Positions 358 through 12,882 of a DNA stretch of 13,194 bases are shown here, piece after piece (positions within the stretch are counted from its first letter, which is position 1; each line of letters starts with the position of its first letter). The stretch lies in IMG/VR virus record IMGVR_UViG_2537561618_000005. One strand, written 5' to 3'. Source of the stretch: a virus. Its lineage: Duplodnaviria > Heunggongvirae > Uroviricota > Caudoviricetes. The position numbers and the translations under genes are program-made. The notes beneath the pieces are model-generated. The model saw nothing but the letters and a program-made list of their open reading frames with translations. It did no database searches and had not been told where the DNA came from.

Positions 358-448
358 TAGACTGGCCCCCTGAATCTCCAGACAACCAGTATCACTTATT
401 TAAGTGATAGTCTTAATACTAGTTTTTAGACTAGTCATTGGAGAACAG

Positions 449-814
449 ATGATTGATGTCTTAGGGCCGGAGAAACGCAGACGGCGTACCACACAGGAAA
501 AGATCGCAATTGTTCAGCAGAGCTTTGAACCGGGGATGACGGTCTCCCTCGTTGCCCGGCAACATGGTGTAGCAGCCAGCCAGTTATTTCTCTGGCGTAA
601 GCAATACCAGGAAGGAAGTCTTACTGCTGTGGCCGCCGGAGAACAGGTTGTTCCTGCCTCTGAACTTGCTGCCGCCATGAAGCAGATTAAAGAACTCCAG
701 CGCCTGCTCGGCAAGAAAACGATGGAAAATGAACTCCTCAAAGAAGCCGTTGAATATGGACGGGCAAAAAAGTGGATAGCGCACGCGCCCTTATTGCCCG
801 GGGATGGGGAGTAA
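449..814 (+). CDS. insC: IS2 OrfA (InsC) transposase regulatory/HTH protein
   Basis: ATG at 449 preceded by GGAGAA. Translation [56 protein letters not shown]...[18 protein letters not shown] matches IS2 InsC from memory. The ORF-track start at 404 lies inside the IS terminal repeat and is unlikely. Confidence 0.9.
766..772 (+). promoter_or_regulatory. A AAA AAG programmed -1 ribosomal frameshift heptamer of IS2 (insC to insD)
   Basis: A6G run at 766-772 where the insC frame (frame 2) overlaps the insD frame (frame 1). IS3-family elements make the OrfAB transposase by -1 frameshifting at such motifs. Confidence 0.6.
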
Positions 815-1677
815 GCTTAGTCAGCCGTTGTCTCCGGGTGTCGCGTGCGCAGTTGCACGTCATTCTCAGACGAACCGATGACTGGATGGATGGCCGCCGC
901 AGTCGTCACACTGATGATACGGATGTGCTTCTCCGTATACACCATGTTATCGGAGAGCTGCCCACGTATGGTTATCGTCGGGTATGGGCGCTGCTTCGCA
1001 GACAGGCAGAACTTGATGGTATGCCTGCGATCAATGCCAAACGTGTTTACCGGCTCATGCGCCAGAATGCGCTGTTGCTTGAGCGAAAACCTGCTGTACC
1101 GCCATCGAAACGGGCACATACAGGCAGAGTGGCCGTGAAAGAAAGCAATCAGCGATGGTGCTCTGACGGGTTCGAGTTCTGCTGTGATAACGGAGAGAGA
1201 CTGCGTGTCACGTTCGCGCTGGACTGCTGTGATCGTGAGGCACTGCACTGGGCGGTGACTACCGGCGGCTTCAACAGTGAAACAGTACAGGATGTCATGC
1301 TGGGAGCGGTGGAACGCCGCTTCGGCAACGATCTTCCGTCGTCTCCAGTGGAGTAGCTGACGGATAATGGTTCATGCTACCGGGCTAATGAAACACGCCA
1401 GTTCGCCCGGATGTTGGGACTTGAACCGAAGAACACGGCGGTGCGGAGTCCGGAGAGTAACGGAATAGCAGAGAGCTTCGTGAAAACGATAAAGCGTGAC
1501 TACATCAGTATCATGCCCAAACCAGACGGGTTAACGGCAGCAAAGAACCTTGCAGAGGCGTTCGAGCATTATAACGAATGGCATCCGCATAGTGCGCTGG
1601 GTTATCGCTCGCCACGGGAATATCTGCGGCAGCGGGCTTGTAATGGGTTAAGTGATAACAGATGTCTGGAAATATAG
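772..1677 (+). pseudogene. insD: IS2 OrfB (InsD) transposase catalytic domain, interrupted by in-frame TAG at 1354-1356
   Basis: Frame 1 is InsD-like throughout ([20 protein letters not shown]...SSPVE then [41 protein letters not shown]...NRCLEI). Codon 1354-1356 is TAG where IS2 InsD has W (VEWLTDNG) in my memory, immediately before the DNG catalytic region. The track splits it into ORFs 772-1356 and 1411-1677 in the same frame. Confidence 0.8.
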
Positions 1678-1733
1678 GGGCAAATCCAGTATAAGCCATT
1701 ATCAAACCCACCCGTAGATAGGCTTTGTAATGG

Positions 1734-2021
1734 CTACTTCTTCAGAAATGATTCGATGAATTCACGTCGAGGATGACGATAGTTCAGAATATCTTCTGGC
1801 ATCCTCATAAAGCGGTTGTTGCCGTCTTTGGCAGTAACAAAACAGCTGTGAACTCCGCAGACATCCGTTTTGATCGTGTCGCTATACTCAAAAAGCAACT
1901 GAGCCATCTTCTCTTGCCATTCTGGAGGCATAGCCTCCATGAATACTCGCGGCATCACGCAGAACGACGTATGCGTAAGACCAAACCACAGTTGCAGGTC
2001 TTTACGATATTCTTCATCCAT
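1734..2021 (-). CDS. Hypothetical 95-aa protein ([95 protein letters not shown]), family not recognised
   Basis: ATG (reverse complement of 2019-2021) preceded by AAGGT with 6-nt spacing. The ORF-track ORF 1734-2117 continues upstream only because the frame stays open into the IS911 left end. The stop is 45 bp from the IS2 right end. I could not assign a family from memory. Confidence 0.4.
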
Positions 2022-2085
2022 CGTCTTTACCTTTGTTGCAATGATGAAGTGGCACACTGAATTTGGCCACCTGAACAGAGGTGAT

Positions 2086-3284
<1,199 letters not shown>

Positions 3285-3292
3285 CCACTTCA

Positions 3293-4447
3293 TGGATGCC
3301 TGTTGAGCAGGAAGCGCCAACCCAGACTGGCTGGGATTTAACTGGCAACGCAACCGGGATTCTGGAACTCTCCGTGAAGTGCAACATGGGCGATCCGGAT
3401 AACGATTTCTTCGAGCTTCGTGCAGATGACCTGCGTGATGAGCGTTCTTACCGTCGCCGCATCCAGGCATCCGCCAAAAAACTGGCGAATAACATTGAGT
3501 CAGCGATTGCCAAACAGGCAACTGAAATGGGCTCGCTTGTTGTTCACGATACCCGCGCAATTGGTCCATCGACTGGCCTGCCTGGCTGGGATTTTGTGTC
3601 TGATGCAGAGCGACTGATGTTCTCCCGTGAGCTAAACCGCGACATGGGCATCAGTTACTTCCTGAACCCTGACGATTACCGCAAAGCAGGCCGCAACCTG
3701 GTAGATGGTGACATCTTCGGGCGCGTTCCTGAAGAAGCATATCGAAACGGTACTATTCAGCGTCAGATTGCTGGCTTTGATGAAATTCTTCGCTCACCGA
3801 AACTTCCGGCAGTTACCAAGTCAACCGCGACTGGTGTAACTGTTTCTGGTGCGCAGAAGTTTAAGCCGCAGGCATACACCCTTGATACCGATGGTAACAA
3901 AGAGAACGTCGACAACCGTGTTGCAACGGTGACCGTATCCTCCACCACCGGATTTAAGCGCGGCGACAAAATCAGCTTCATTGGTGTGAAGTTCCTGTCT
4001 CAGATGGCGAAGAATGTGCTGACTGATGACGCGACTTTCTCAATCACCCGTGTGATCGATGGTACTCACATCGAAATCACGCCGAAGCCGATTGCGCTGG
4101 ATGACGCGTCACTGACAAAAGAAGAGAAGGCTTACGCTAACGTAAACACCTCTCTTGCTGATACCACTCCGGTAAACGTTCTGAACGTGGCAACAACCAC
4201 CGCTAACGTGTTCTGGGCTGATGACTCAATCCGCCTGCTGTCTCAGCCGATCCCGGTAACCCATGAACTGTTTGCTGGCATGAAAACGTCTTCCTTCAGC
4301 ATTCCAGGTATTGGTGTTAACGGCATCTTCGCAACGCAGGGTGATATCAACACTCTGTCTGGTAAGTGCCGTATTGCTGTGTGGTATTCAGCATGTGCTG
4401 TACGACCAGAGGCAATTGGTGTTGGTCTGCCTAACCAGACCGCGTGA
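3293..4447 (+). pseudogene. P22-type major capsid (coat) protein gene, 5'-truncated by the IS911 right end (about 45 N-terminal codons missing)
   Basis: Translation [16 protein letters not shown]...[33 protein letters not shown]...[39 protein letters not shown]...[34 protein letters not shown]...[14 protein letters not shown] is collinear with P22 gp5 coat as I remember it. The homology starts exactly at the IS911 boundary, with no native start codon or RBS. Confidence 0.9.
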
Positions 4448-4455
4448 TAACCAGA

Positions 4456-4479
4456 GGGAGCTTCGGCTCCCGTTTTTAT
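4456..4479 (+). terminator. Intrinsic (rho-independent) terminator-like hairpin downstream of the coat gene
   Basis: GGGAGC-TTCG-GCTCCC perfect 6-bp GC-rich stem with tetraloop, followed by GTTTTTAT, 9 nt after the coat stop (TGA 4445-4447). Confidence 0.6.
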
Positions 4480-4491
4480 CTGGAGACAAGC

Positions 4492-4716
4492 ATGACACAC
4501 ATGATCTTTCGTCATGGCGACATGAAGAAGTGGAAAGGCGTTGGCTACGACTTTGAAATCGTGAAAGCCGAAGAGCTTCAGGAATATCTGGATGCTGGCT
4601 GGTTTTCACATCCTGATGACCTTTTGAAGGATGTTGCAGAGCCAGAAGAAAAACAGTGTAAAAAGCCTGGTCGAAAACCTAAGGCGGCAGCAGATGAACC
4701 TGACAACGAAGGGTGA
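4492..4716 (+). CDS. Small hypothetical protein (74 aa) between coat and adaptor genes
   Basis: ATG at 4492 preceded by GGAGA. Translation [74 protein letters not shown]. Its 3' end overlaps the next gene start by 23 nt. Function unknown. Confidence 0.5.
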
Positions 4717-5194
4717 TTTAGTTCTTGCGGCATTACGTAAGCTCGGTGTTGCATCAAATGCCACGTTAACCGATGTCGAACCGCAGTCTATGGAAGACGG
4801 CGTCAACGACCTTGAAATGATGATGGCTGAATGGCTTGGCGGTGATGCGTCACCTGGTATCAACGTTGGCTACATTTTTGCTGATGCAGATGTTGCTCCG
4901 GATCCGGGCGATGAGCACGGTTTATCAAATAACGCTATCAATGCCGTCATTTTCAACCTTGCCTGCCGAATTGCTCCAGATTATGCGCTGGAAGCGTCTG
5001 CAAAACTTATAACCACTGCCAGATACGGGAAAGAGCGACTCGTCAAACTGTCTGCAATGGACAGGGCAAAAGCAGCTAAATGTAAGTCCGGTTATCCAAA
5101 CCGTATGCCTGTTGGTAGTGGTAACCAGTTGGCGAAGTGGAATGGTTGGAATTACTTCCACCGAAAGGAACCTTGCGATAACGGGAGCGAATAA
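4694..5194 (+). CDS. Head-to-tail adaptor protein, P22 gp4-like (166 aa)
   Basis: [47 protein letters not shown]...[29 protein letters not shown]...[11 protein letters not shown] resembles P22 gp4 from memory, with the same length and position directly upstream of the gp10 homolog. The stop TAA overlaps the next ATG (ATAATG). Confidence 0.85.
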
Positions 5195-6612
5195 TGCCTA
5201 TTCAGCAACTTCCGCTTATGAAAGGTGTCGGCAAAGACTTCCGAAACGCCGACTATATCGACTATCTGCCAGTGAATATGCTGGCTACACCCAAAGAAAT
5301 CCTGAACAGCAGCGGATATCTTCGCCCATTCCCGGGCATTGCCAAACGTTCTGACGTGAACGGTGTATCTCGCGGCGTCGAGTACAACATGGCGCAGAAT
5401 GCTGTTTATCGCGTGTGTGGCGGCAAGCTGTACAAAGGAGAAAGTGAAGTCGGTGATGTTGCCGGAAGTGGTCGTGTATCAATGGCGCATGGTCGGACAT
5501 CACAGGCGGTAGGCGTTAATGGTCAACTGGTCGAGTATCGCTATGATGGCACGGTCAAAACCGTCTCAAACTGGCCTACAGACAGTGGATTCACTCAGTA
5601 TGAGTTAGGTTCAGTTCGCGACATTACGCGCTTACGTGGGCGTTATGCGTGGTCAAAAGACGGAACTGATTCATGGTTTATCACTGACCTTGAAGACGAA
5701 TCTCATCCTGACCGTTACAGCGCACAATATCGTGCCGAGTCTCAGCCTGACGGCATCATCGGTATCGGGACATGGCGAGACTTCATCGTCTGCTTTGGTT
5801 CATCGACTATTGAATATTTCTCCCTGACTGGCGCAACCACCGTTGGTGCCGCTTTGTATGTTGCACAACCATCGCTGATGGTGCAGAAAGGCATTGCCGG
5901 AACTTACTGCAAAACGCCATTCGCTGATTCGTATGCGTTTATCAGCAATCCGGCAACGGGTGCGCCGTCTGTGTATATCATCGACTCCGGTCAGGTGTCA
6001 CCAATTGCCAGCGCGAGCATTGAGAAAATCCTCCGCTCCTACACTGCTGATGAACTGGCTGATGGTGTGATGGAATCGCTGCGATTTGATGCTCATGAGT
6101 TGCTGATTATCCACCTTCCGCGTCACGTCCTCGTGTACGACGCATCTTCAAGCGCCAATGGCCCACAATGGTGTGTGCTGAAAACAGGTCTGTATGACGA
6201 TGTGTACCGCGCTATCGACTTCGTTTACGAAGGCAATCAGATAACGTGCGGCGATAAGCTGGAATCTGTTACCGGGAAACTGCAATTCGATATCAGCAGC
6301 CAGTACGACAAGCAACAGGAACACCTGCTGTTTACTCCACTCTTCAAAGCGGATAACGCCAGAGTGTTCGACCTTGAGGTTGAATCGTCAACTGGCGTTG
6401 CGCAGTACGCCGACCGCCTTTTTCTCTCTGCAACCACTGACTGCATCAATTACGGGCGTGAGCAGATGATTGAGCAGAATGAACCGTTCGTTTACGACAA
6501 GCGTGTTTTGTGGAAGCGAGTAGGGCGCATCAGGAAAAATGTCGGCTTCAAATTGCGCGTTATCACGAAGTCACCTGTCACTCTGTCTGGCGCTCAGATA
6601 AGGATTGAGTAA
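5194..6612 (+). CDS. Tail hub / tail accessory protein, P22 gp10-like (472 aa)
   Basis: [48 protein letters not shown]...[18 protein letters not shown]. Length and N-terminus agree with P22 gp10 as I remember it, and the gene is in the gp4-gp10-gp26 order. Confidence 0.88.
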
Positions 6613-7409
6613 TGGCTGATTCGAATCTCAATGTGCCGGTAATCATCCAAGCTACGCGGCTCGATACATCAGTCCTTCCACGCAATATCTTCTCGCAGTC
6701 GTATCTGCTTTACGTTATCGCACAGGGCACTGATGTTGGTAACGTGGCTAACAAAGCCAACGAGGCCGGACAGGGCGCTTATGATGCACAGGTCAGGAAC
6801 GATGAGCAGGATGTGATTCTCGCTGACCATGAGCAGCGAATTTCTGCTGCGGAAGCAACGCTTGTTAATCATGAGGAGCGAATCAGACAGGCAGAATCAA
6901 CTCTTCAGGACCATGAAACACGAATAGCTCAGAATGAAAGCGATATTTCGTCGCTTGACACAAGAGTTCAGTCGCTGGAGTCGCAGGTTTCAGACCATGA
7001 AACGCGCATCGATGCTCTGGAGTATGCAACCACACGCAAGAAGTCAGAGGTTGTTTACTCTGGTGTATCTGTAACCATCCCGACAGCGCCGACCAACCTT
7101 GTTAGCCTGCTGAAAACGCTCACACCGTCATCCGGCTCGTTGGCACCATTCTTCGACACCGTTAACAACAAGATGGTTGTGTTCAACGAGAACAAAACCC
7201 TGCTCTTCAAGTTGTCGATTGTCGGCACGTGGCCCAGCGGAACCGCCAACAGGTCAATGCAGCTAACCTTTTCCGGCTCTGTTCCTGACACACTGGTCAG
7301 CAGTCGTAATGCGGCGACAACAACCGACAACATCCTGTTAGCTACGTTCTTCAGCGTGGATAAAGACGGCTTTCTTGCCACAACCATCAAGATAATCGCG
7401 GAGCAGTGA
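6612..7409 (+). CDS. Tail needle protein, P22 gp26-like N-terminus and coiled-coil core with a divergent C-terminal domain (265 aa)
   Basis: N-terminus [68 protein letters not shown] is near-identical in pattern to P22 gp26. It is followed by DHE.RI heptad-type repeats. The last ~110 aa ([25 protein letters not shown]...TIKIIAEQ) do not resemble the P22 gp26 C-terminus. Confidence 0.85.
6825..7020 (+). repeat. Intragenic periodic repeats (about 42 nt / 14 aa; GACCATGA-R units) encoding the trimeric coiled-coil shaft of the tail needle
   Basis: [14 protein letters not shown] / [14 protein letters not shown] / [14 protein letters not shown] / ... / [19 protein letters not shown] or CATGA-containing units recur at 14- or 28-codon spacing. 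Confidence 0.5.
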
Positions 7410-7864
7410 TGATTACATTCAAACCAACGCGAAACATCGACCTGATAGAAGCAGTCGGAAATCACCCTGACATTATCGCCGGGAGCAACAACGGTGATGG
7501 ATACGACTACAAACCTGAATGCCGTTACTTTGAGGTGAACGTGCACGGTCAGTTTGGCGGCATTGTTTACTATCAGGAGATTCAGCCGCTGACATTAGAT
7601 TGCCACGCCATGTACCTGCCAGAGATTCGCGGCTTCAGCAAGGAAATTGGGCTGGCGTTCTGGCGATACATTCTGACTAACACCACCGTTCAGTGCGTAA
7701 CATCGTTCGCTGCACGCAAATTCCGACACGGTCAGATGTACTGCGCAATGATTGGCCTTAAGCGTGTAGGAACCATCAAGAAATACTTCAAAGGCGTGGA
7801 TGACGTGACTTTTTACAGCGCCACACGCGAAGAACTAATCGACTTCCTGAATCACGGGAGATAG
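7409..7864 (+). CDS. Hypothetical virion-associated protein at the position of P22 gene 14 (151 aa)
   Basis: ATG at 7409 overlaps the gp26-like stop (TGATG). Translation [51 protein letters not shown].... Assignment is by position only; I cannot confirm sequence similarity to P22 gp14 from memory. Confidence 0.55.
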   Translation: MITFKPTRNIDLIEAVGNHPDIIAGSNNGDGYDYKPECRYFEVNVHGQFGGIVYYQEIQPLTLDCHAMYLPEIRGFSKEIGLAFWRYILTNTTVQCVTSFAARKFRHGQMYCAMIGLKRVGTIKKYFKGVDDVTFYSATREELIDFLNHGR

Positions 7865-7866
7865 CC

Positions 7867-8475
7867 ATGTTATATGCATTTAAGCTGGGCAGAAAACTGT
7901 GCGGCGAGGAACCTTATTGCCCTGAAAAAGGCGGGAAAGGTGGCAGTTCTGATAAAAGCGCAAAGTATGCAGCAGAAGCCCAGAAGTATGCTGCAGACCT
8001 GCAAAATCAGCAGTGGCAGACGATCATGAAAAACCTTGCTCCGTTCACGCCTCTTGCGGAGCAGTATGTTAACCAGCTTCAGAACCTTTCCAGTTTAGAA
8101 GGTCAGGGGCAGGCACTTAATCAGTATTACAACTCTAAGCAGTATAAAGACCTTGCAGGGCAGGCGCGTTACCAGAGTCTTGCTGCTGCGGAGGCGACGG
8201 GTGGACTTGGTTCGACAGCCACAAGCAATCAACTGGCTACGATCGCGCCGACACTCGGTCAGTCTTGGTTATCAAATCAGATGAGCAATTACAACAATCT
8301 GGCAAACGTTGGGCTTGGTGCGCTGCAAGGTCAGGCAAACGCCGGGCAGACGTACGCCAACAACATGAGCAGCATTGCACAGCAAAGCGCAGCTCTTGCC
8401 AGCCTTTTGGGAACATCAACGCCTTGGGGCGCTGGTATTGGTGCTGGTATCGGATTGCTTGGCTCGTTGTTTTAA
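7867..8475 (+). CDS. DNA-ejection (E) protein, P22 gp7-like (202 aa)
   Basis: ATG at 7867 preceded by GGGAGA. Gln/Asn/Ala/Gly-rich low-complexity protein with a Gly-rich hydrophobic C-terminus (WGAGIGAGIGLLGSLF). Position and composition are typical of the first P22-type ejection protein. Confidence 0.8.
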   Translation: MLYAFKLGRKLCGEEPYCPEKGGKGGSSDKSAKYAAEAQKYAADLQNQQWQTIMKNLAPFTPLAEQYVNQLQNLSSLEGQGQALNQYYNSKQYKDLAGQARYQSLAAAEATGGLGSTATSNQLATIAPTLGQSWLSNQMSNYNNLANVGLGALQGQANAGQTYANNMSSIAQQSAALASLLGTSTPWGAGIGAGIGLLGSLF

Positions 8476-8484
8476 GGGGTAATC

Positions 8485-9816
8485 ATGGCTACTTGGCAAG
8501 GAACAAACGGCGGATTGTTGGCTGGTATCGGCGGCGTCAACTCAAACGCTCCGAGCGTAAATGACATCGGCAATACGCTTCAGCTTATCAGGCAGAACAA
8601 TGATATTGAGCGTTCAGGCGCTAACAATGTTGGGCTGACTGCTTTGCAAGGTCTTTCAGGTATTGCGGGTGTTTTTCAGCAGGAAAAGCAGGCTCAGCGG
8701 CAGAAAGAATTTCAGCAGGCGTACGCTAATGCTTATGCGTCTGGTGATCGCGGTGCTTTGCGTCAGTTGGCTACTCAATATCCAGACCAGATTGAATCCG
8801 TTCGTAAAGGCATGGGATTCATTGATGAAGAGCAGCGTAATTCTATCGGCACCTTAGCGGCTGGCGCACGCCTTGCGTCATCGTCTCCAGAAGCAATGCA
8901 ATCATGGCTGCAAAACAACGCCGGTGAGTTAGCTCGTGTTGGCGTTAATCCTCATGACGTCGCTCAGATGTACCAACAGAACCCGCGGCAGTTCGGCGAA
9001 TTTGTCGATCACCTGGGGATGAACAGTCTCGGGCCCGAAAAATACTTTGACCTACAGGATAAAATGCAGGGTCGCCAGGTTACCATGCGCGGTCAGGATC
9101 TGGATTCGCAAACCGCCGCTCGGAATCAGGCAATCACAATGCGCGGACAAGATATCCAGGCGAATTTAGGTCAGCAGCGCATTAATCTGGACGCAGAAAC
9201 AAACCGCATTAACAACGAAAATAAGCGCCTTGACCGGATGCTATCAGCAGAAACTAACGACCTGAAGCGCCAGGAAATACAGAGCCGCATAGCAGCCAAC
9301 AACCAGCAGTTGCAGCAGAAGCAGCAAGCGCTAAATGATGGCTACAAAGACGGCATCAACACCCTCACAACCAGCATGTTCACTCTGAACGATATCGTTA
9401 GTTCTCCTTCACTTAAGAGCATTACAGGCTTACGTGGAGTAATCCCCAACGTTCCAGGCTCACAGGCTGCAGACACTCAGGCACGACTTGATACCTTTAA
9501 ATCACAAGCATACCTGACAGCGGTTCAGGCCATGCGAGGCATGGGCGCACTTTCTGATGCCGAGGGCAAAAAGCTCGACCAGGCTGTTGGTTCGCTGCAG
9601 AACTCGCAGAGCGAGGAGTCCTTTCGTCGCAACGCTGGCGTCATCCTGAACACGCTCAACCAGAAGCGTAATGAGGCGGTTGGTAAGTACGTTCAGCAAA
9701 ACGGTATCAAGCGAGTGGAAGCGCCTCAGGCTTCTATAGATTACCTGAAGCAGCACCCCGAGCTGTCAATCGACTTCATTAATCGCTACGGATATCTTCC
9801 ATCTTTGGGGCAGTAA
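8485..9816 (+). CDS. DNA-ejection (E) protein, P22 gp20-like (443 aa)
   Basis: ATG at 8485 preceded by AAGGGG. Translation MATWQGTNGGLLAGIGGVNSNAPS.... Gln-rich with internal TMRGQD repeats. Position and size match the second ejection protein. Confidence 0.8.
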   Translation: MATWQGTNGGLLAGIGGVNSNAPSVNDIGNTLQLIRQNNDIERSGANNVGLTALQGLSGIAGVFQQEKQAQRQKEFQQAYANAYASGDRGALRQLATQYPDQIESVRKGMGFIDEEQRNSIGTLAAGARLASSSPEAMQSWLQNNAGELARVGVNPHDVAQMYQQNPRQFGEFVDHLGMNSLGPEKYFDLQDKMQGRQVTMRGQDLDSQTAARNQAITMRGQDIQANLGQQRINLDAETNRINNENKRLDRMLSAETNDLKRQEIQSRIAANNQQLQQKQQALNDGYKDGINTLTTSMFTLNDIVSSPSLKSITGLRGVIPNVPGSQAADTQARLDTFKSQAYLTAVQAMRGMGALSDAEGKKLDQAVGSLQNSQSEESFRRNAGVILNTLNQKRNEAVGKYVQQNGIKRVEAPQASIDYLKQHPELSIDFINRYGYLPSLGQ

Positions 9817-11547
9817 ATGGCTAATTACCGTGATTTGTTAGAGCAGGCTGGCGCACGTTACGGTGTGCCAGAAGGGTTGATGACTGCACTGGGTGCCAAG
9901 GAGTCTTCTTACAACCCTGCCGCAGTAAGCTCCGCCGGGGCTGTAGGATTGACTCAGGTCATGCCTGGGACATGGCGTGATATGGGTTATACCGATGAGC
10001 AAATGCAAAACCCCGAATATCAGGCTGACGCTGGCGCGCGCTATCTGGCAAAGATGTACCAGCAGTTTGGTAACTGGCGTGACGCTCTTCAGGCTTATCA
10101 CGACGGTCCCGGCAACGTTATGAAGGCAAAGCGTGGTGAATATACGCCAGGACCTGAAGGCCGCGGTTACGTTGATGATCGCTTTGCTCAATGGGCTGGT
10201 GACCCGGTGACAGACTCAACAGTCGAACAGCGCGCCACCTCTGCAAAGGTACATCCTCAGCAAGACCCTAACAACCCGTTTGCACAACTGGAAGTACAGT
10301 CATCCGAACAAGTATCGGCATCAGGTGTGCAGTCAGACCCAAATAATCCATTTGCTCAGATTGAGCAGCAGGCAGCCAGTCAGCAGCCACCTCAACCCGT
10401 AAGTTCTGTCGCACCGAAACCTGTTCAGCAACAAACAGTTAATCAGGCCAATAATGCACCAACACGGGAAGAACCATCATTGATGCAACAAGCTGGCGAT
10501 TGGCTCACTGGTGGTCAAAGTGCAGGGCAAATTGCAGAACAGGCTGGTCGTGGTCTGGTAAACATACCATTTGACGTATTGCAGGGTGGCGCAAGTCTGA
10601 TTAATGCAATCAGTCAGGGGCTTGGGGGGCCAAAAGTATTGGATGATGTTTATCGTCCAGTAGACAGACCGACAGACCCCTACGCGCAAGCTGGAGAGTC
10701 AATAGGCGGTTATCTTGTTCCTGGAGCAGGTGTAGCTGGAAACATGGTCATTGGTTCTCTCGCTGACGCGGCGAATCAACGGGGTGATTTTGCCGAAAAT
10801 GCCGCTATTAATGCCGGACTTAGCATTGCTACGCATGGCCTGATAAATGGCGTTACCCGTGGTGTTCGTGGTGCATCAAATATAATTAGTGGCAATAAAA
10901 CATCTGCACAGAGAGCGACCACTGCGCCAACAGAAACATCACCATTCTCCGGTGATGCCGCTGCAGCAACAAATCCTGCGGTTCATGCCGCAGAGGCAAG
11001 AGTAGCACAAGGTGTACCAATGACGCCTGCGACGAAGAACCCAGAGGAAGTCGTTCGCACAGTAGCAGCACAAAAAAGGCCAAATCTCGCTTCATCGCTT
11101 GATGAACTAGATATCAATCCTCAGGCTGAAGTTCTGGAGTCTGCTGAAAGGCTTAATGTTGATTCATTACTCCCTTCACACTTTTCCGGGAACGAGCAAT
11201 ACAAGGCAGTTGAGCAAGCAATCAAGTCCCGTGCGGGTTCTGCTCTACAGGTGCAGGAAAATGAAGCAATCAGGCAGCTAGCACAGGGCGCGGGTGAGAT
11301 AATTGATCGCGTTTCCGGTGCAAAAGATGCTCTTGGTATGAGCGACAAGTTTATTGATACGGTCAATGGAAGAATGTCTGCGCTGATGAAACGAAGCGAC
11401 CAGCTTTATCGCAATGTTGAAAAGGCGATGCCTGCAGGTGCAAAAATTGATGCGCCATCAACAAGGTCAATGCTCAAACAGGTGGCAGAAGATCTTGGCG
11501 GGATGAAAAACCTTGACCCTATTGAAAAGAGAGTTGAGGTAGCCTGA
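9817..11547 (+). CDS. DNA-ejection / internal virion protein, P22 gp16-position, with N-terminal lytic transglycosylase (SLT)-like domain (576 aa)
   Basis: ATG at 9817 directly after the gp20-like stop (TAAATG). The N-terminal ~110 aa carry family-1 lytic transglycosylase motifs ([28 protein letters not shown], then AYHDGPGN). Two DPNNPFAQ peptide repeats occur mid-protein. Confidence 0.8.
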
Positions 11548-11672: not shown

Positions 11673-11995
11673 ATGACTAAAAATACTCGTTTTTCCCCCG
11701 AAGTCCGTCAACGGGCAGTCCGTATGGTTCTGGAAAGTCAGGGCGAATATGACTCACAATGGGCGACAATTTGTTCCATTGCCCCAAAGATTGGCTGTAC
11801 GCCGGAGACTCTGCGTGTCTGGGTTCGCCAGCATGAGCGGGATACCGGGGGCGGTGATGGAGGGCTCACCACCGCTGAACGTCAGCGTCTGAAAGAGCTG
11901 GAGCGTGAAAATCGTGAACTGCGCCGCAGTAACGATATCCTTCGCCAGGCTTCCGCTTATTTTGCGAAGGCGGAGTTCGACCGCCTCTGGAAAAA

Positions 11996-11999
<4 letters not shown>
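11673..11999 (+). CDS. IS629-like OrfA (HTH / leucine-zipper transposase N-terminal protein)
   Basis: [108 protein letters not shown] matches IS629/IS1203 OrfA from memory. Confidence 0.9.

Positions 12000-12882
<883 letters not shown>

Follow-up and report, generated by a model that had tools for sequence, protein, structure and literature searches.

Features of the locus

The window, by which we mean the whole stretch of 13,194 nucleotides of tailed-phage (Caudoviricetes) DNA that was analysed (IMG/VR record IMGVR_UViG_2537561618_000005), carries near its left end a short island of prophage DNA enclosed by two insertion sequences. The features of this region are listed below, with the basis of each assignment in brackets.

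1 to 357: fragment of an IS66-family transposase gene (sequence annotation)
358 to 1688, plus strand: IS2, 1331 bp, with the ORF cassette's 3' end directly next to its right end (ORF list, comparison of ends and flanks)
1689 to 2044, unstranded: island of prophage DNA, 356 bp (megablast and alignment with intact prophages)
1694 to 1735, minus strand: 3' stem-loop of 8 + 9 pairs overlapping the stop codon (RNA fold)
1734 to 2021, minus strand: complete coding sequence of 95 codons (ORF list, match to PHROG 3527, homologues, dN/dS, AlphaFold)
2022 to 2044, minus strand: remnant of the native 5' leader, 23 nt, with AAAGG (alignment with intact prophages, junction comparison)
2045 to 3292, plus strand: IS911, 1248 bp (99% identity to annotated IS911 copies)

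The open reading frame (ORF) in the island runs on the minus strand from an ATG at 2019-2021 to a TAG at 1734-1736, and the C-terminal end of its product is ESFLKK. The program-made ORF list gives it as 1734 to 2117, counted from an upstream TTG; from the ATG it encodes a product of 95 aa and 11.5 kDa. Both the list and the sequence confirmed the original prediction of a minus-strand ORF with this start codon and an intact 3' end. The ribosome-binding site, which had been called good, is present as AAAGG at 2030-2034, 8 nt before the ATG, but was rated as fair rather than strong. The left end of IS911 does lie close to the ORF start as described, though at a spacing of 23 nt (2022-2044) and not 24 as previously counted. 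Within this leader, comparison of junctions revealed a mismatch to the native sequence at position 2043. At the opposite end of the ORF, RNA folding predicted the stem-loop at 1694-1735 to have a stability of -24 kcal/mol (z = -4.5), a value reached by none of 200 shuffled sequences. The same hairpin occurs in the intact prophage L001 and is part of the native cassette; the IS2 boundary is located 5 nt past it. As had been recognised, positions 1689-2044 are the sole DNA on the left side of the window that belongs neither to an IS nor to a structural gene, with IS66-family sequence at 1-357 and a coat gene from 3293.

The right end of IS2, ...GGGGCAAATCCA, stops at 1688. Its orfB is in two pieces (772-1356 and 1411-1677), and its genes read toward the 3' end of the ORF, to which they are antisense. 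On the other side, the left inverted repeat of IS911, TGAAGTGGCACACTG..., begins at 2045 and faces the ORF start, such that the transposase genes of this element are divergent from the ORF. The segment 2045-3292 is 99% identical to copies labelled 'IS3-like element IS911 family transposase', and alignment disclosed a frameshift in orfA, where the A7 run that follows the ATG has lost one A (2118-2126). Target duplications were found neither for IS2, which is flanked by ATCCC and GTATA, nor for IS911, flanked by TGA and TGG, and hence each IS joins unrelated DNA. The P22-type coat gene that starts at 3293 is 5'-truncated, with about 48 N-terminal codons missing, and after it come P22-type virion genes, which are on the plus strand, opposite to the ORF.

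Family membership and predicted structure of the protein

The ORF had been regarded as an orphan of unrecognised family. The first of these descriptions did not survive a search of the PHROG profiles, where the protein matched PHROG 3527 with E = 4.4e-55 and 188 bits, residues 1-95 corresponding to columns 139-230 of 233. Furthermore, when 1.84 billion cluster representatives were searched exhaustively with an HMM, 1,640 clusters were obtained at E <= 1e-3, 696 of them at E <= 1e-10. The relationship is one of direct sequence membership, with all 95 residues aligned; the 233-column profile, however, includes long forms, and the ORF protein represents the C-terminal conserved module alone. Related PHROG families are phrog_33008 and phrog_10794. 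A genome scan with the profile from alignment A1 located family matches in Gamma-, Alpha-, Beta- and Deltaproteobacteria, and in Verrucomicrobia, Actinomycetota and Parabacteroides MAGs. The second description was correct in so far as the protein has no match in Pfam (E <= 1) or NCBIfam, but it is now placed in PHROG 3527, a family of unknown function. A PADLOC scan at E <= 0.1 gave no match to a defence model, and no paper was found in the literature on phrog_3527 or WP_000343116. As an object the ORF is already known, the identical protein having been deposited many times as 'hypothetical protein'.

That the ORF is a real gene is indicated by dN/dS values of 0.02-0.09 against homologues at 86-90% protein identity, from which it differs by 22-40 synonymous and 11-15 non-synonymous changes. 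A search with the single sequence gave 43 close homologues, and a profile search 907. A chance or non-coding ORF was ruled out by these dN/dS values and by a family of more than 900 members.

Alignments A1, A2 and A5 took the ORF protein as their reference. The family is marked by the conserved motifs WFGL, PRV, MPxxWQ and NYRHP. Across the diverse alignment R25, W35 and Y81 are invariant, and the near-invariant positions comprise M39 and V62 together with L9, F13, L15, P24, M31, P32, Q36, L42, L43, P75, R82 and P84; all of the latter set and the three invariant residues occur in the ORF protein. Judging from the alignments, the conserved core is largely hydrophobic and proline-rich and lacks an obvious set of catalytic residues. 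The pI of the domain has a median of 6.0 and is 5.9 in this copy, which makes it mildly acidic, and a GRAVY value of -0.53 marks it as hydrophilic overall. An AlphaFold model, a check that had been suggested along with the original prediction, was confident (pLDDT 89.7) and predicts a module of about 90 aa that is compact and consists mostly of helices, but this module has no PDB neighbour. A sequence profile search of the PDB gave nothing below E = 0.17, which is noise. A Foldseek search of BFVD returned solely uncharacterised members of the same family.

Attention had also been drawn to a C..C.H..C pattern, and the residues concerned are indeed present in this copy as C21, C55, H58 and C60, as expected if the protein were a small zinc-binding protein or regulator. 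They are not conserved across the family, though. In other members C21 is replaced by L, V or A, C55 by A, E or P, H58 by R, G, D or T, and C60 by V, R or Y, so that all four positions vary in the alignments in which R25, W35 and Y81 do not, and the Pfam scan disclosed no zinc-finger family. As the pattern is not conserved, it is not a zinc site, and the probability left to a zinc-binding function is negligible.

The native locus is a cassette between lysis and terminase genes

The uninterrupted ancestral locus, which a DNA search had been proposed to reveal, was found in intact lambdoid prophages of Escherichia coli and in the P22-like phage HF4s. By megablast, the island matched 155 of 5,426 complete E. 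coli genomes, always in the chromosome and over window positions 1689-2042 only, and the DNA common to intact prophages ends exactly at 1689 and 2042/2044. In E. coli EC9682 and O55:H7 RM12579 the gene is located between a truncated Rz gene and a DUF1441-type small terminase gene, on the strand of the late genes. In HF4s the homologue, with 96% protein identity, comes after Rz/Rz1 and is again on the late strand.

Directly upstream of the Shine-Dalgarno sequence in the intact prophages is an intrinsic terminator, AGCCTCGCATTCGCGGGGCT followed by TTTTT, which ends 24 nt before the ATG. The native unit is a cassette consisting of this terminator hairpin, the Shine-Dalgarno sequence, the ORF of 95 codons and a strong 3' hairpin. 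The cassette DNA is 96-99.7% identical between the P22-like HF4s and prophages with gpA-type terminases. Diverged viral contigs have the gene at the same position while the flanking modules differ, the upstream neighbours being GH108-type or lysozyme-type endolysins and Rz, and the downstream large terminases being of the gpA, TerL, Terminase_6 and Terminase_3 types.

In L001, the interval from the terminator to the ATG yielded no sigma-70-like site in a simple consensus match. As none was found, it seemed likely that the gene would have no promoter of its own in the native phage, and would be read within the Q-antiterminated late transcript through the upstream terminator. The proposal that the native promoter has been displaced in the window can thus be kept only in part: native upstream DNA was replaced by IS911, but what was lost comprises the terminator and the late operon and would not include a dedicated promoter.

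Small cassettes inserted between functional modules of lambdoid phages, such as bor of lambda, are known as morons. The unit described here resembles them as it is a short, hairpin-bounded cassette at the boundary of lysis and packaging genes that has been exchanged between otherwise different phages. It differs in that no promoter of its own was detected by the consensus scan, in that the family is also present in non-lambdoid phages, e.g. Sasha and Carvaje, and in that a lysogen phenotype is not among its known features.

The ORF is a complete gene

The match to PHROG 3527 being limited to columns 139-230 of 233, the ORF might be the C-terminal part of a gene for a protein of about 230 aa, the 5' portion of which was removed by IS911. 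Long forms of 130-415 aa that carry the domain C-terminally do exist, for instance in Pseudomonas phages Jeremy and Psp6, and some ORF callers give a 172-aa version in intact prophages (P0045; L010). However, in intact E. coli prophages with DNA 97.7-99.7% identical to that of the window the gene is annotated at 95 aa. The intrinsic terminator is situated upstream of the ATG in these prophages, and the 172-aa frame runs through its hairpin; this longer version stems from ORF calling and is an artefact. The majority of homologues have 92-105 aa, stand alone and align from the same Met, among them diverged ones (50-87% identity) from many genera and phages. Stand-alone genes encoding 94-98 aa with the same start are found in Salmonella phage Sasha, Klebsiella phage Carvaje and Vibrio phages ValSw3-3 and Seahorse.

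Over the 278 proteins retrieved, the N-terminal extension has a median length of 9 aa. In 83 of the 278 it reaches 40 aa or more, and these long extensions are nearly all mutually unrelated, with clusters of at most 3. As the N-terminal parts of the long forms are unrelated to each other, they represent independent fusions and not the ancestral full length. The original prediction had named a hit to the C-terminal piece of a larger known gene as the result that would speak against it; despite the position of the PHROG match, the size of most homologues and the terminator upstream of the gene argue against such a truncation, which we consider extremely improbable. The 95-codon ORF is a real, complete and intact stand-alone phage gene.

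Other genomic contexts and fusions of the family

Outside the lambdoid and P22-like phages the gene occupies several positions. In Vibrio phages ValSw3-3 and Seahorse the next gene downstream of it is terS. In Sasha and Carvaje a small divergent cluster lies amid the head genes and begins with this gene, and in Sasha-like phages its strand is opposite to that of the head genes. In Pseudomonas phages family members lie in early regions near primase or helicase genes, and the domain forms the C-terminal part of proteins of 243 aa and 344 aa. No conserved partner gene was found beside the family members, and the neighbours differ between phage groups.

Ead and Ea22 are early-left accessory genes of lambda and P22. 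In enterobacterial contigs, members with 53-55% identity are encoded directly downstream of an Ead/Ea22-like gene on the same strand, near genes for a protein with a dATP/dGTP pyrophosphohydrolase domain and for a DnaQ-like exonuclease, a setting that is typical of lambdoid early-left accessory genes. From its orientation the ORF in the window had been compared, as a speculation, with genes of this type. For these distant relatives the comparison holds, but in the intact close relatives of this copy the gene shares the strand of the late genes and has Rz and terS on either side, and no sequence relationship of the family to Ea22 was seen.

Fusions to other domains were looked for in 68 long forms. 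In two of these (P0196 and P0247) a Lar_restr_allev domain above the Pfam cut-off is present ahead of the family domain. Among the others, one contains DUF4406/DUF7768, one NlpC/P60, and in several the added part is a zinc ribbon of another kind or a coiled coil; in addition, one protein has two tandem copies of the domain. Lar, the restriction alleviation protein of the Rac prophage (PF14354), is thus linked to the family by a fused zinc ribbon of its type, and both Lar and the PHROG 3527 family are small phage accessory proteins. The protein of the window, in contrast, contains no Lar domain and has no Pfam match, and the link is one of fusion in 2 of the 68 long forms and not of homology. 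Another family of small genes, Phage_gp49_66 (N4 gp49 / Sf6 gene 66), presumably follows the lysis genes in Sf6, and we take it to be similar to the ORF in size and in its position in P22-like Shigella phages. The protein of the window is nevertheless not a member, as the Pfam scan (E <= 1) returned no family at all.

Origin of the arrangement in the window and in Shigella

What survives in the window is the cassette without its upstream terminator, in the 356-bp island. The identical protein is encoded in many chromosomes of 4.4-4.6 Mb, all of which have the same IS2 junction. A related locus from the genome scan, L098, belongs to Shigella flexneri SFBU1023. The DNA beyond IS911 varies by genome and consists of P22 portal, scaffold and coat genes, of gtrA/gtrB, or of phoA/psiF. 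The exact IS911-ORF junction of the window was absent in a search of one genome per species; the same type of junction is present in L095, which was found via the identical protein. In most other genomes IS911 is reversed, so that 26 nt separate its right end from the ATG and its transposase genes point toward the ORF, and in L098 and L099 a deletion of 18 bp takes out the Shine-Dalgarno sequence.

Shigella genomes are full of IS-bounded relics. The island would have been isolated by IS-mediated rearrangements of a decaying P22-like/lambdoid prophage. As the intact relatives are co-oriented with the late genes, we infer that the orientation of the ORF opposite to the late genes was produced by such a rearrangement in Shigella. 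For the identity of the ORF, its completeness and its status as a relic, taken jointly, our confidence is high.

A simple consensus scan, which weak or non-sigma-70 sites or read-through from elsewhere would escape, revealed no sigma-70-like promoter on either strand of window positions 1500-2500. Since the ORF is preceded in the window by the left end of IS911, which offers no sigma-70-like site and whose transposase genes are directed away from the ORF, the gene is here, to judge from the sequence, probably a silent passenger. In the genomes with reversed IS911, read-through from this element is possible. The gene might accordingly have been kept in Shigella as a useful domesticated prophage gene expressed in this way, and the identity of the protein across many Shigella chromosomes with different DNA past IS911, the location of both IS ends just outside the cassette, and the prevailing arrangement with transposase genes facing the ORF and the IS end close to the ATG can all be cited in favour. 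Identity among clonal Shigella genomes is, however, expected without selection, and this prevailing IS911 orientation is the reverse of that in the window and in L095. Moreover, the Shine-Dalgarno sequence has been lost in L098 and L099, a promoter-like site was found in neither arrangement, and the IS911 copy of the window is itself frameshifted. Domestication is therefore unlikely, and we prefer to regard the gene in the window as a stranded and probably silent relic.

Possible function of the protein

Its small size and non-catalytic look, the accessory positions in which it would be expressed at different times, the exchange of the cassette and the diverse N-terminal fusions suggest that the PHROG 3527 module would be a non-enzymatic binder of a host or phage macromolecule. 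It would then act as an accessory factor in host interaction or counter-defence and not as a lysis, packaging or structural protein. This assignment rests on association, the Lar fusions being a thin signal (2 of 68 long forms), and we put it forward tentatively, as one possibility. Less probable still is the bolder proposal that the WFGL-PRV-MPxxWQ-NYRHP module constitutes an undescribed fold or domain family, used alone or in fusions with Lar-type zinc ribbons and other targeting modules as a counter-defence or host-takeover effector, the copy in Shigella representing a stranded case; on present evidence this would be doubtful.

The main rival to a binding module of this kind is an accessory factor in packaging, which would work with terminase, for example by aiding terS or the recognition of cos or pac. 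It is suggested by the location of the gene next to terS, on its upstream side, in the two Vibrio phages named above, and 0.3-1.8 kb upstream of the terminase genes, whatever their type, in many enterobacterial prophages. Yet the terminase that accompanies it varies (GpA, TerL, Terminase_6, Terminase_3) and no specific partner is conserved. Some members adjoin Ea22-like early genes, those of Pseudomonas phages are in early regions near primase or helicase genes, and Sasha-like phages carry the gene on the strand opposite to the head genes. Besides, the pI of the domain, about 6, is atypical for a DNA-binding helper of terS. A role in packaging thus appears improbable.

A lysis-related function, as a regulator or accessory of the holin-endolysin-spanin system and possibly anchored in the membrane, would agree with the position of the gene, which in lambdoid and P22-like phages comes straight after Rz/Rz1, and with the transmembrane segment annotated at residues 10-29 by the depositors of phages Sasha and Solent. 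This segment, however, includes P24-R25, which are invariant, and is placed by AlphaFold within a compact soluble domain, in line with the negative overall GRAVY value. Many members are far from lysis genes, and where the gene does follow Rz a terminator stands between the two. The protein is very unlikely to serve in lysis. A binding module with an accessory role remains our preferred, if tentative, proposal, and the explanation as a whole, in which identity, completeness and relic status are combined with this mechanism for the protein, is in our judgement somewhat better than an even bet.

Significance

For the window itself the finding carries little weight, as it concerns a catalogued hypothetical prophage gene that has been stranded by insertion sequences and is probably not expressed. 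The locus does offer a natural series of IS911 junction variants, which may serve studies of target choice by this element. The family is of broader interest. PHROG 3527 is among the larger families of uncharacterised phage proteins and is without a curated domain model or a recognisable fold, and once a partner or an activity is defined, thousands of genes in phages and prophages would be annotated. If the guess of a counter-defence role were true, the domain would be a new module among the counter-defence tools of phages.

IS911 at the 5' side of the ORF

The IS911 copy adjoining the 95-aa minus-strand ORF (family PHROG 3527) was compared at its ORF-side junction (window 2042-2060) with those of Shigella-type genomes (loci L090-L099 and L016), and four junction variants were found.

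Junctions between IS911 and the 5' side of the ORF
Variant (a): IS911 right end, ...GACCACTTCA-TCA-TTGCAAC; the majority of the genomes compared
Variant (b): IS911 left end, ...GTGTGCCACTTCA-TCA-TTGCAAC; the window and L095 (CP034060.1)
Variant (c): TCA absent; L090
Variant (d): IS911 right end joined at 6 nt upstream of the ATG, after an 18-bp deletion that takes in the Shine-Dalgarno sequence; L098 and L099

Comparison of the first two junctions disclosed that IS911 in variant (b) is flipped with respect to variant (a), at an unchanged position and with the identical 3 nt (TCA) kept. Homologous recombination between IS copies leaves each flank on its same IS end, and thus a transposition event is needed for the flip. 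Targeted insertion is a known phenomenon for IS911, and one possibility is that a second IS911 may have inserted beside the resident right end. A paper on targeted insertion is among those cited in PMC2909936.

In the window copy of IS911, the A7 run directly after the orfA start codon (2118-2126) was found by alignment to be one A short (ATGAAAAAAG vs the usual ATGAAAAAAAG). Both orfA and orfAB are out of frame from codon 3 on, such that this copy is probably unable to make its own transposase.

Other IS elements and the virion genes

The IS2 element (358-1688) is inserted in a transposase gene of the IS66 family, and the window holds just a fragment of that gene, at 1-357. The orfB of IS2 is split into two parts, 772-1356 and 1411-1677, in place of a single ORF of about 300 aa, and no 5-bp target duplication was found at the IS2 ends (ATCCC vs GTATA). 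Two further features were located to the right of IS911.

3293-11547, plus strand, P22-type virion gene block
11673-12882, further IS3-family element on the right side of the window, with a 108-aa HTH_Tnp_1 ORF and an integrase-core ORF

The integrase-core ORF of the IS3-family element appears broken (118 aa and 222 aa). In the virion block, IS911 cuts into the coat gene, whose match to Pfam P22_CoatProtein begins at profile position 49. Behind the coat gene lie genes for gp10, the tail needle knob, DNA ejection/transfer proteins and a 576-aa SLT-domain protein, the names being those of E. coli annotations on 94-97% identical DNA. The terminase, portal and scaffold genes are absent from the window, and are in part present beside the same ORF-bearing island in L090, a Shigella-type chromosome locus.

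The ORF and its family

An overlapping frame, also of 95 aa, covers the minus-strand gene almost wholly.

1773-2060, plus strand, antisense ORF

As purifying selection on the minus-strand frame is strong, the most likely reading of the antisense ORF is that it is a by-product of the minus-strand gene's frame.

Unusual architectures were observed among the homologous proteins. The domain is present twice in tandem in P0131 and P0158, while P0196 and P0247 carry a Lar-type zinc ribbon at the N-terminus. P0261 and P0189 have an N-terminal region in common, including a HEFGH motif that resembles the zincin metallopeptidase motif; no Pfam match was obtained for this region.

The 3' end of the cassette and its boundary

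The ORF and an interrupted stem-loop of 17 pairs (z = -4.5) overlap at the stop codon, and the counterpart region of the stem-loop was located in the intact E. coli prophage L001.

1694-1735, minus strand, 3' stem-loop of the cassette
L001 5970-6050, counterpart region of the stem-loop

A classical terminator was ruled out, as the stem-loop has no T-run behind it. Possible roles of the structure are stabilisation of the RNA at its 3' end or marking of the cassette boundary. In the P22-like phage HF4s, a G-U pair of the inner stem is changed to G-C, and the homology stops inside the outer stem.

The Rz gene, which lies immediately upstream of the cassette in the intact E. coli prophages, is truncated there (L001 6415-6564, L002 6412-6564): the L001 annotation marks it as incomplete, and in L002 it is given as a hypothetical protein of 50 aa. 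A separate 'lysis protein' gene lies ahead of it. Between the cassette and terS, L001 additionally carries a fragment of an HNH endonuclease. The boundary region of the cassette in these prophages seems to be prone to rearrangement.
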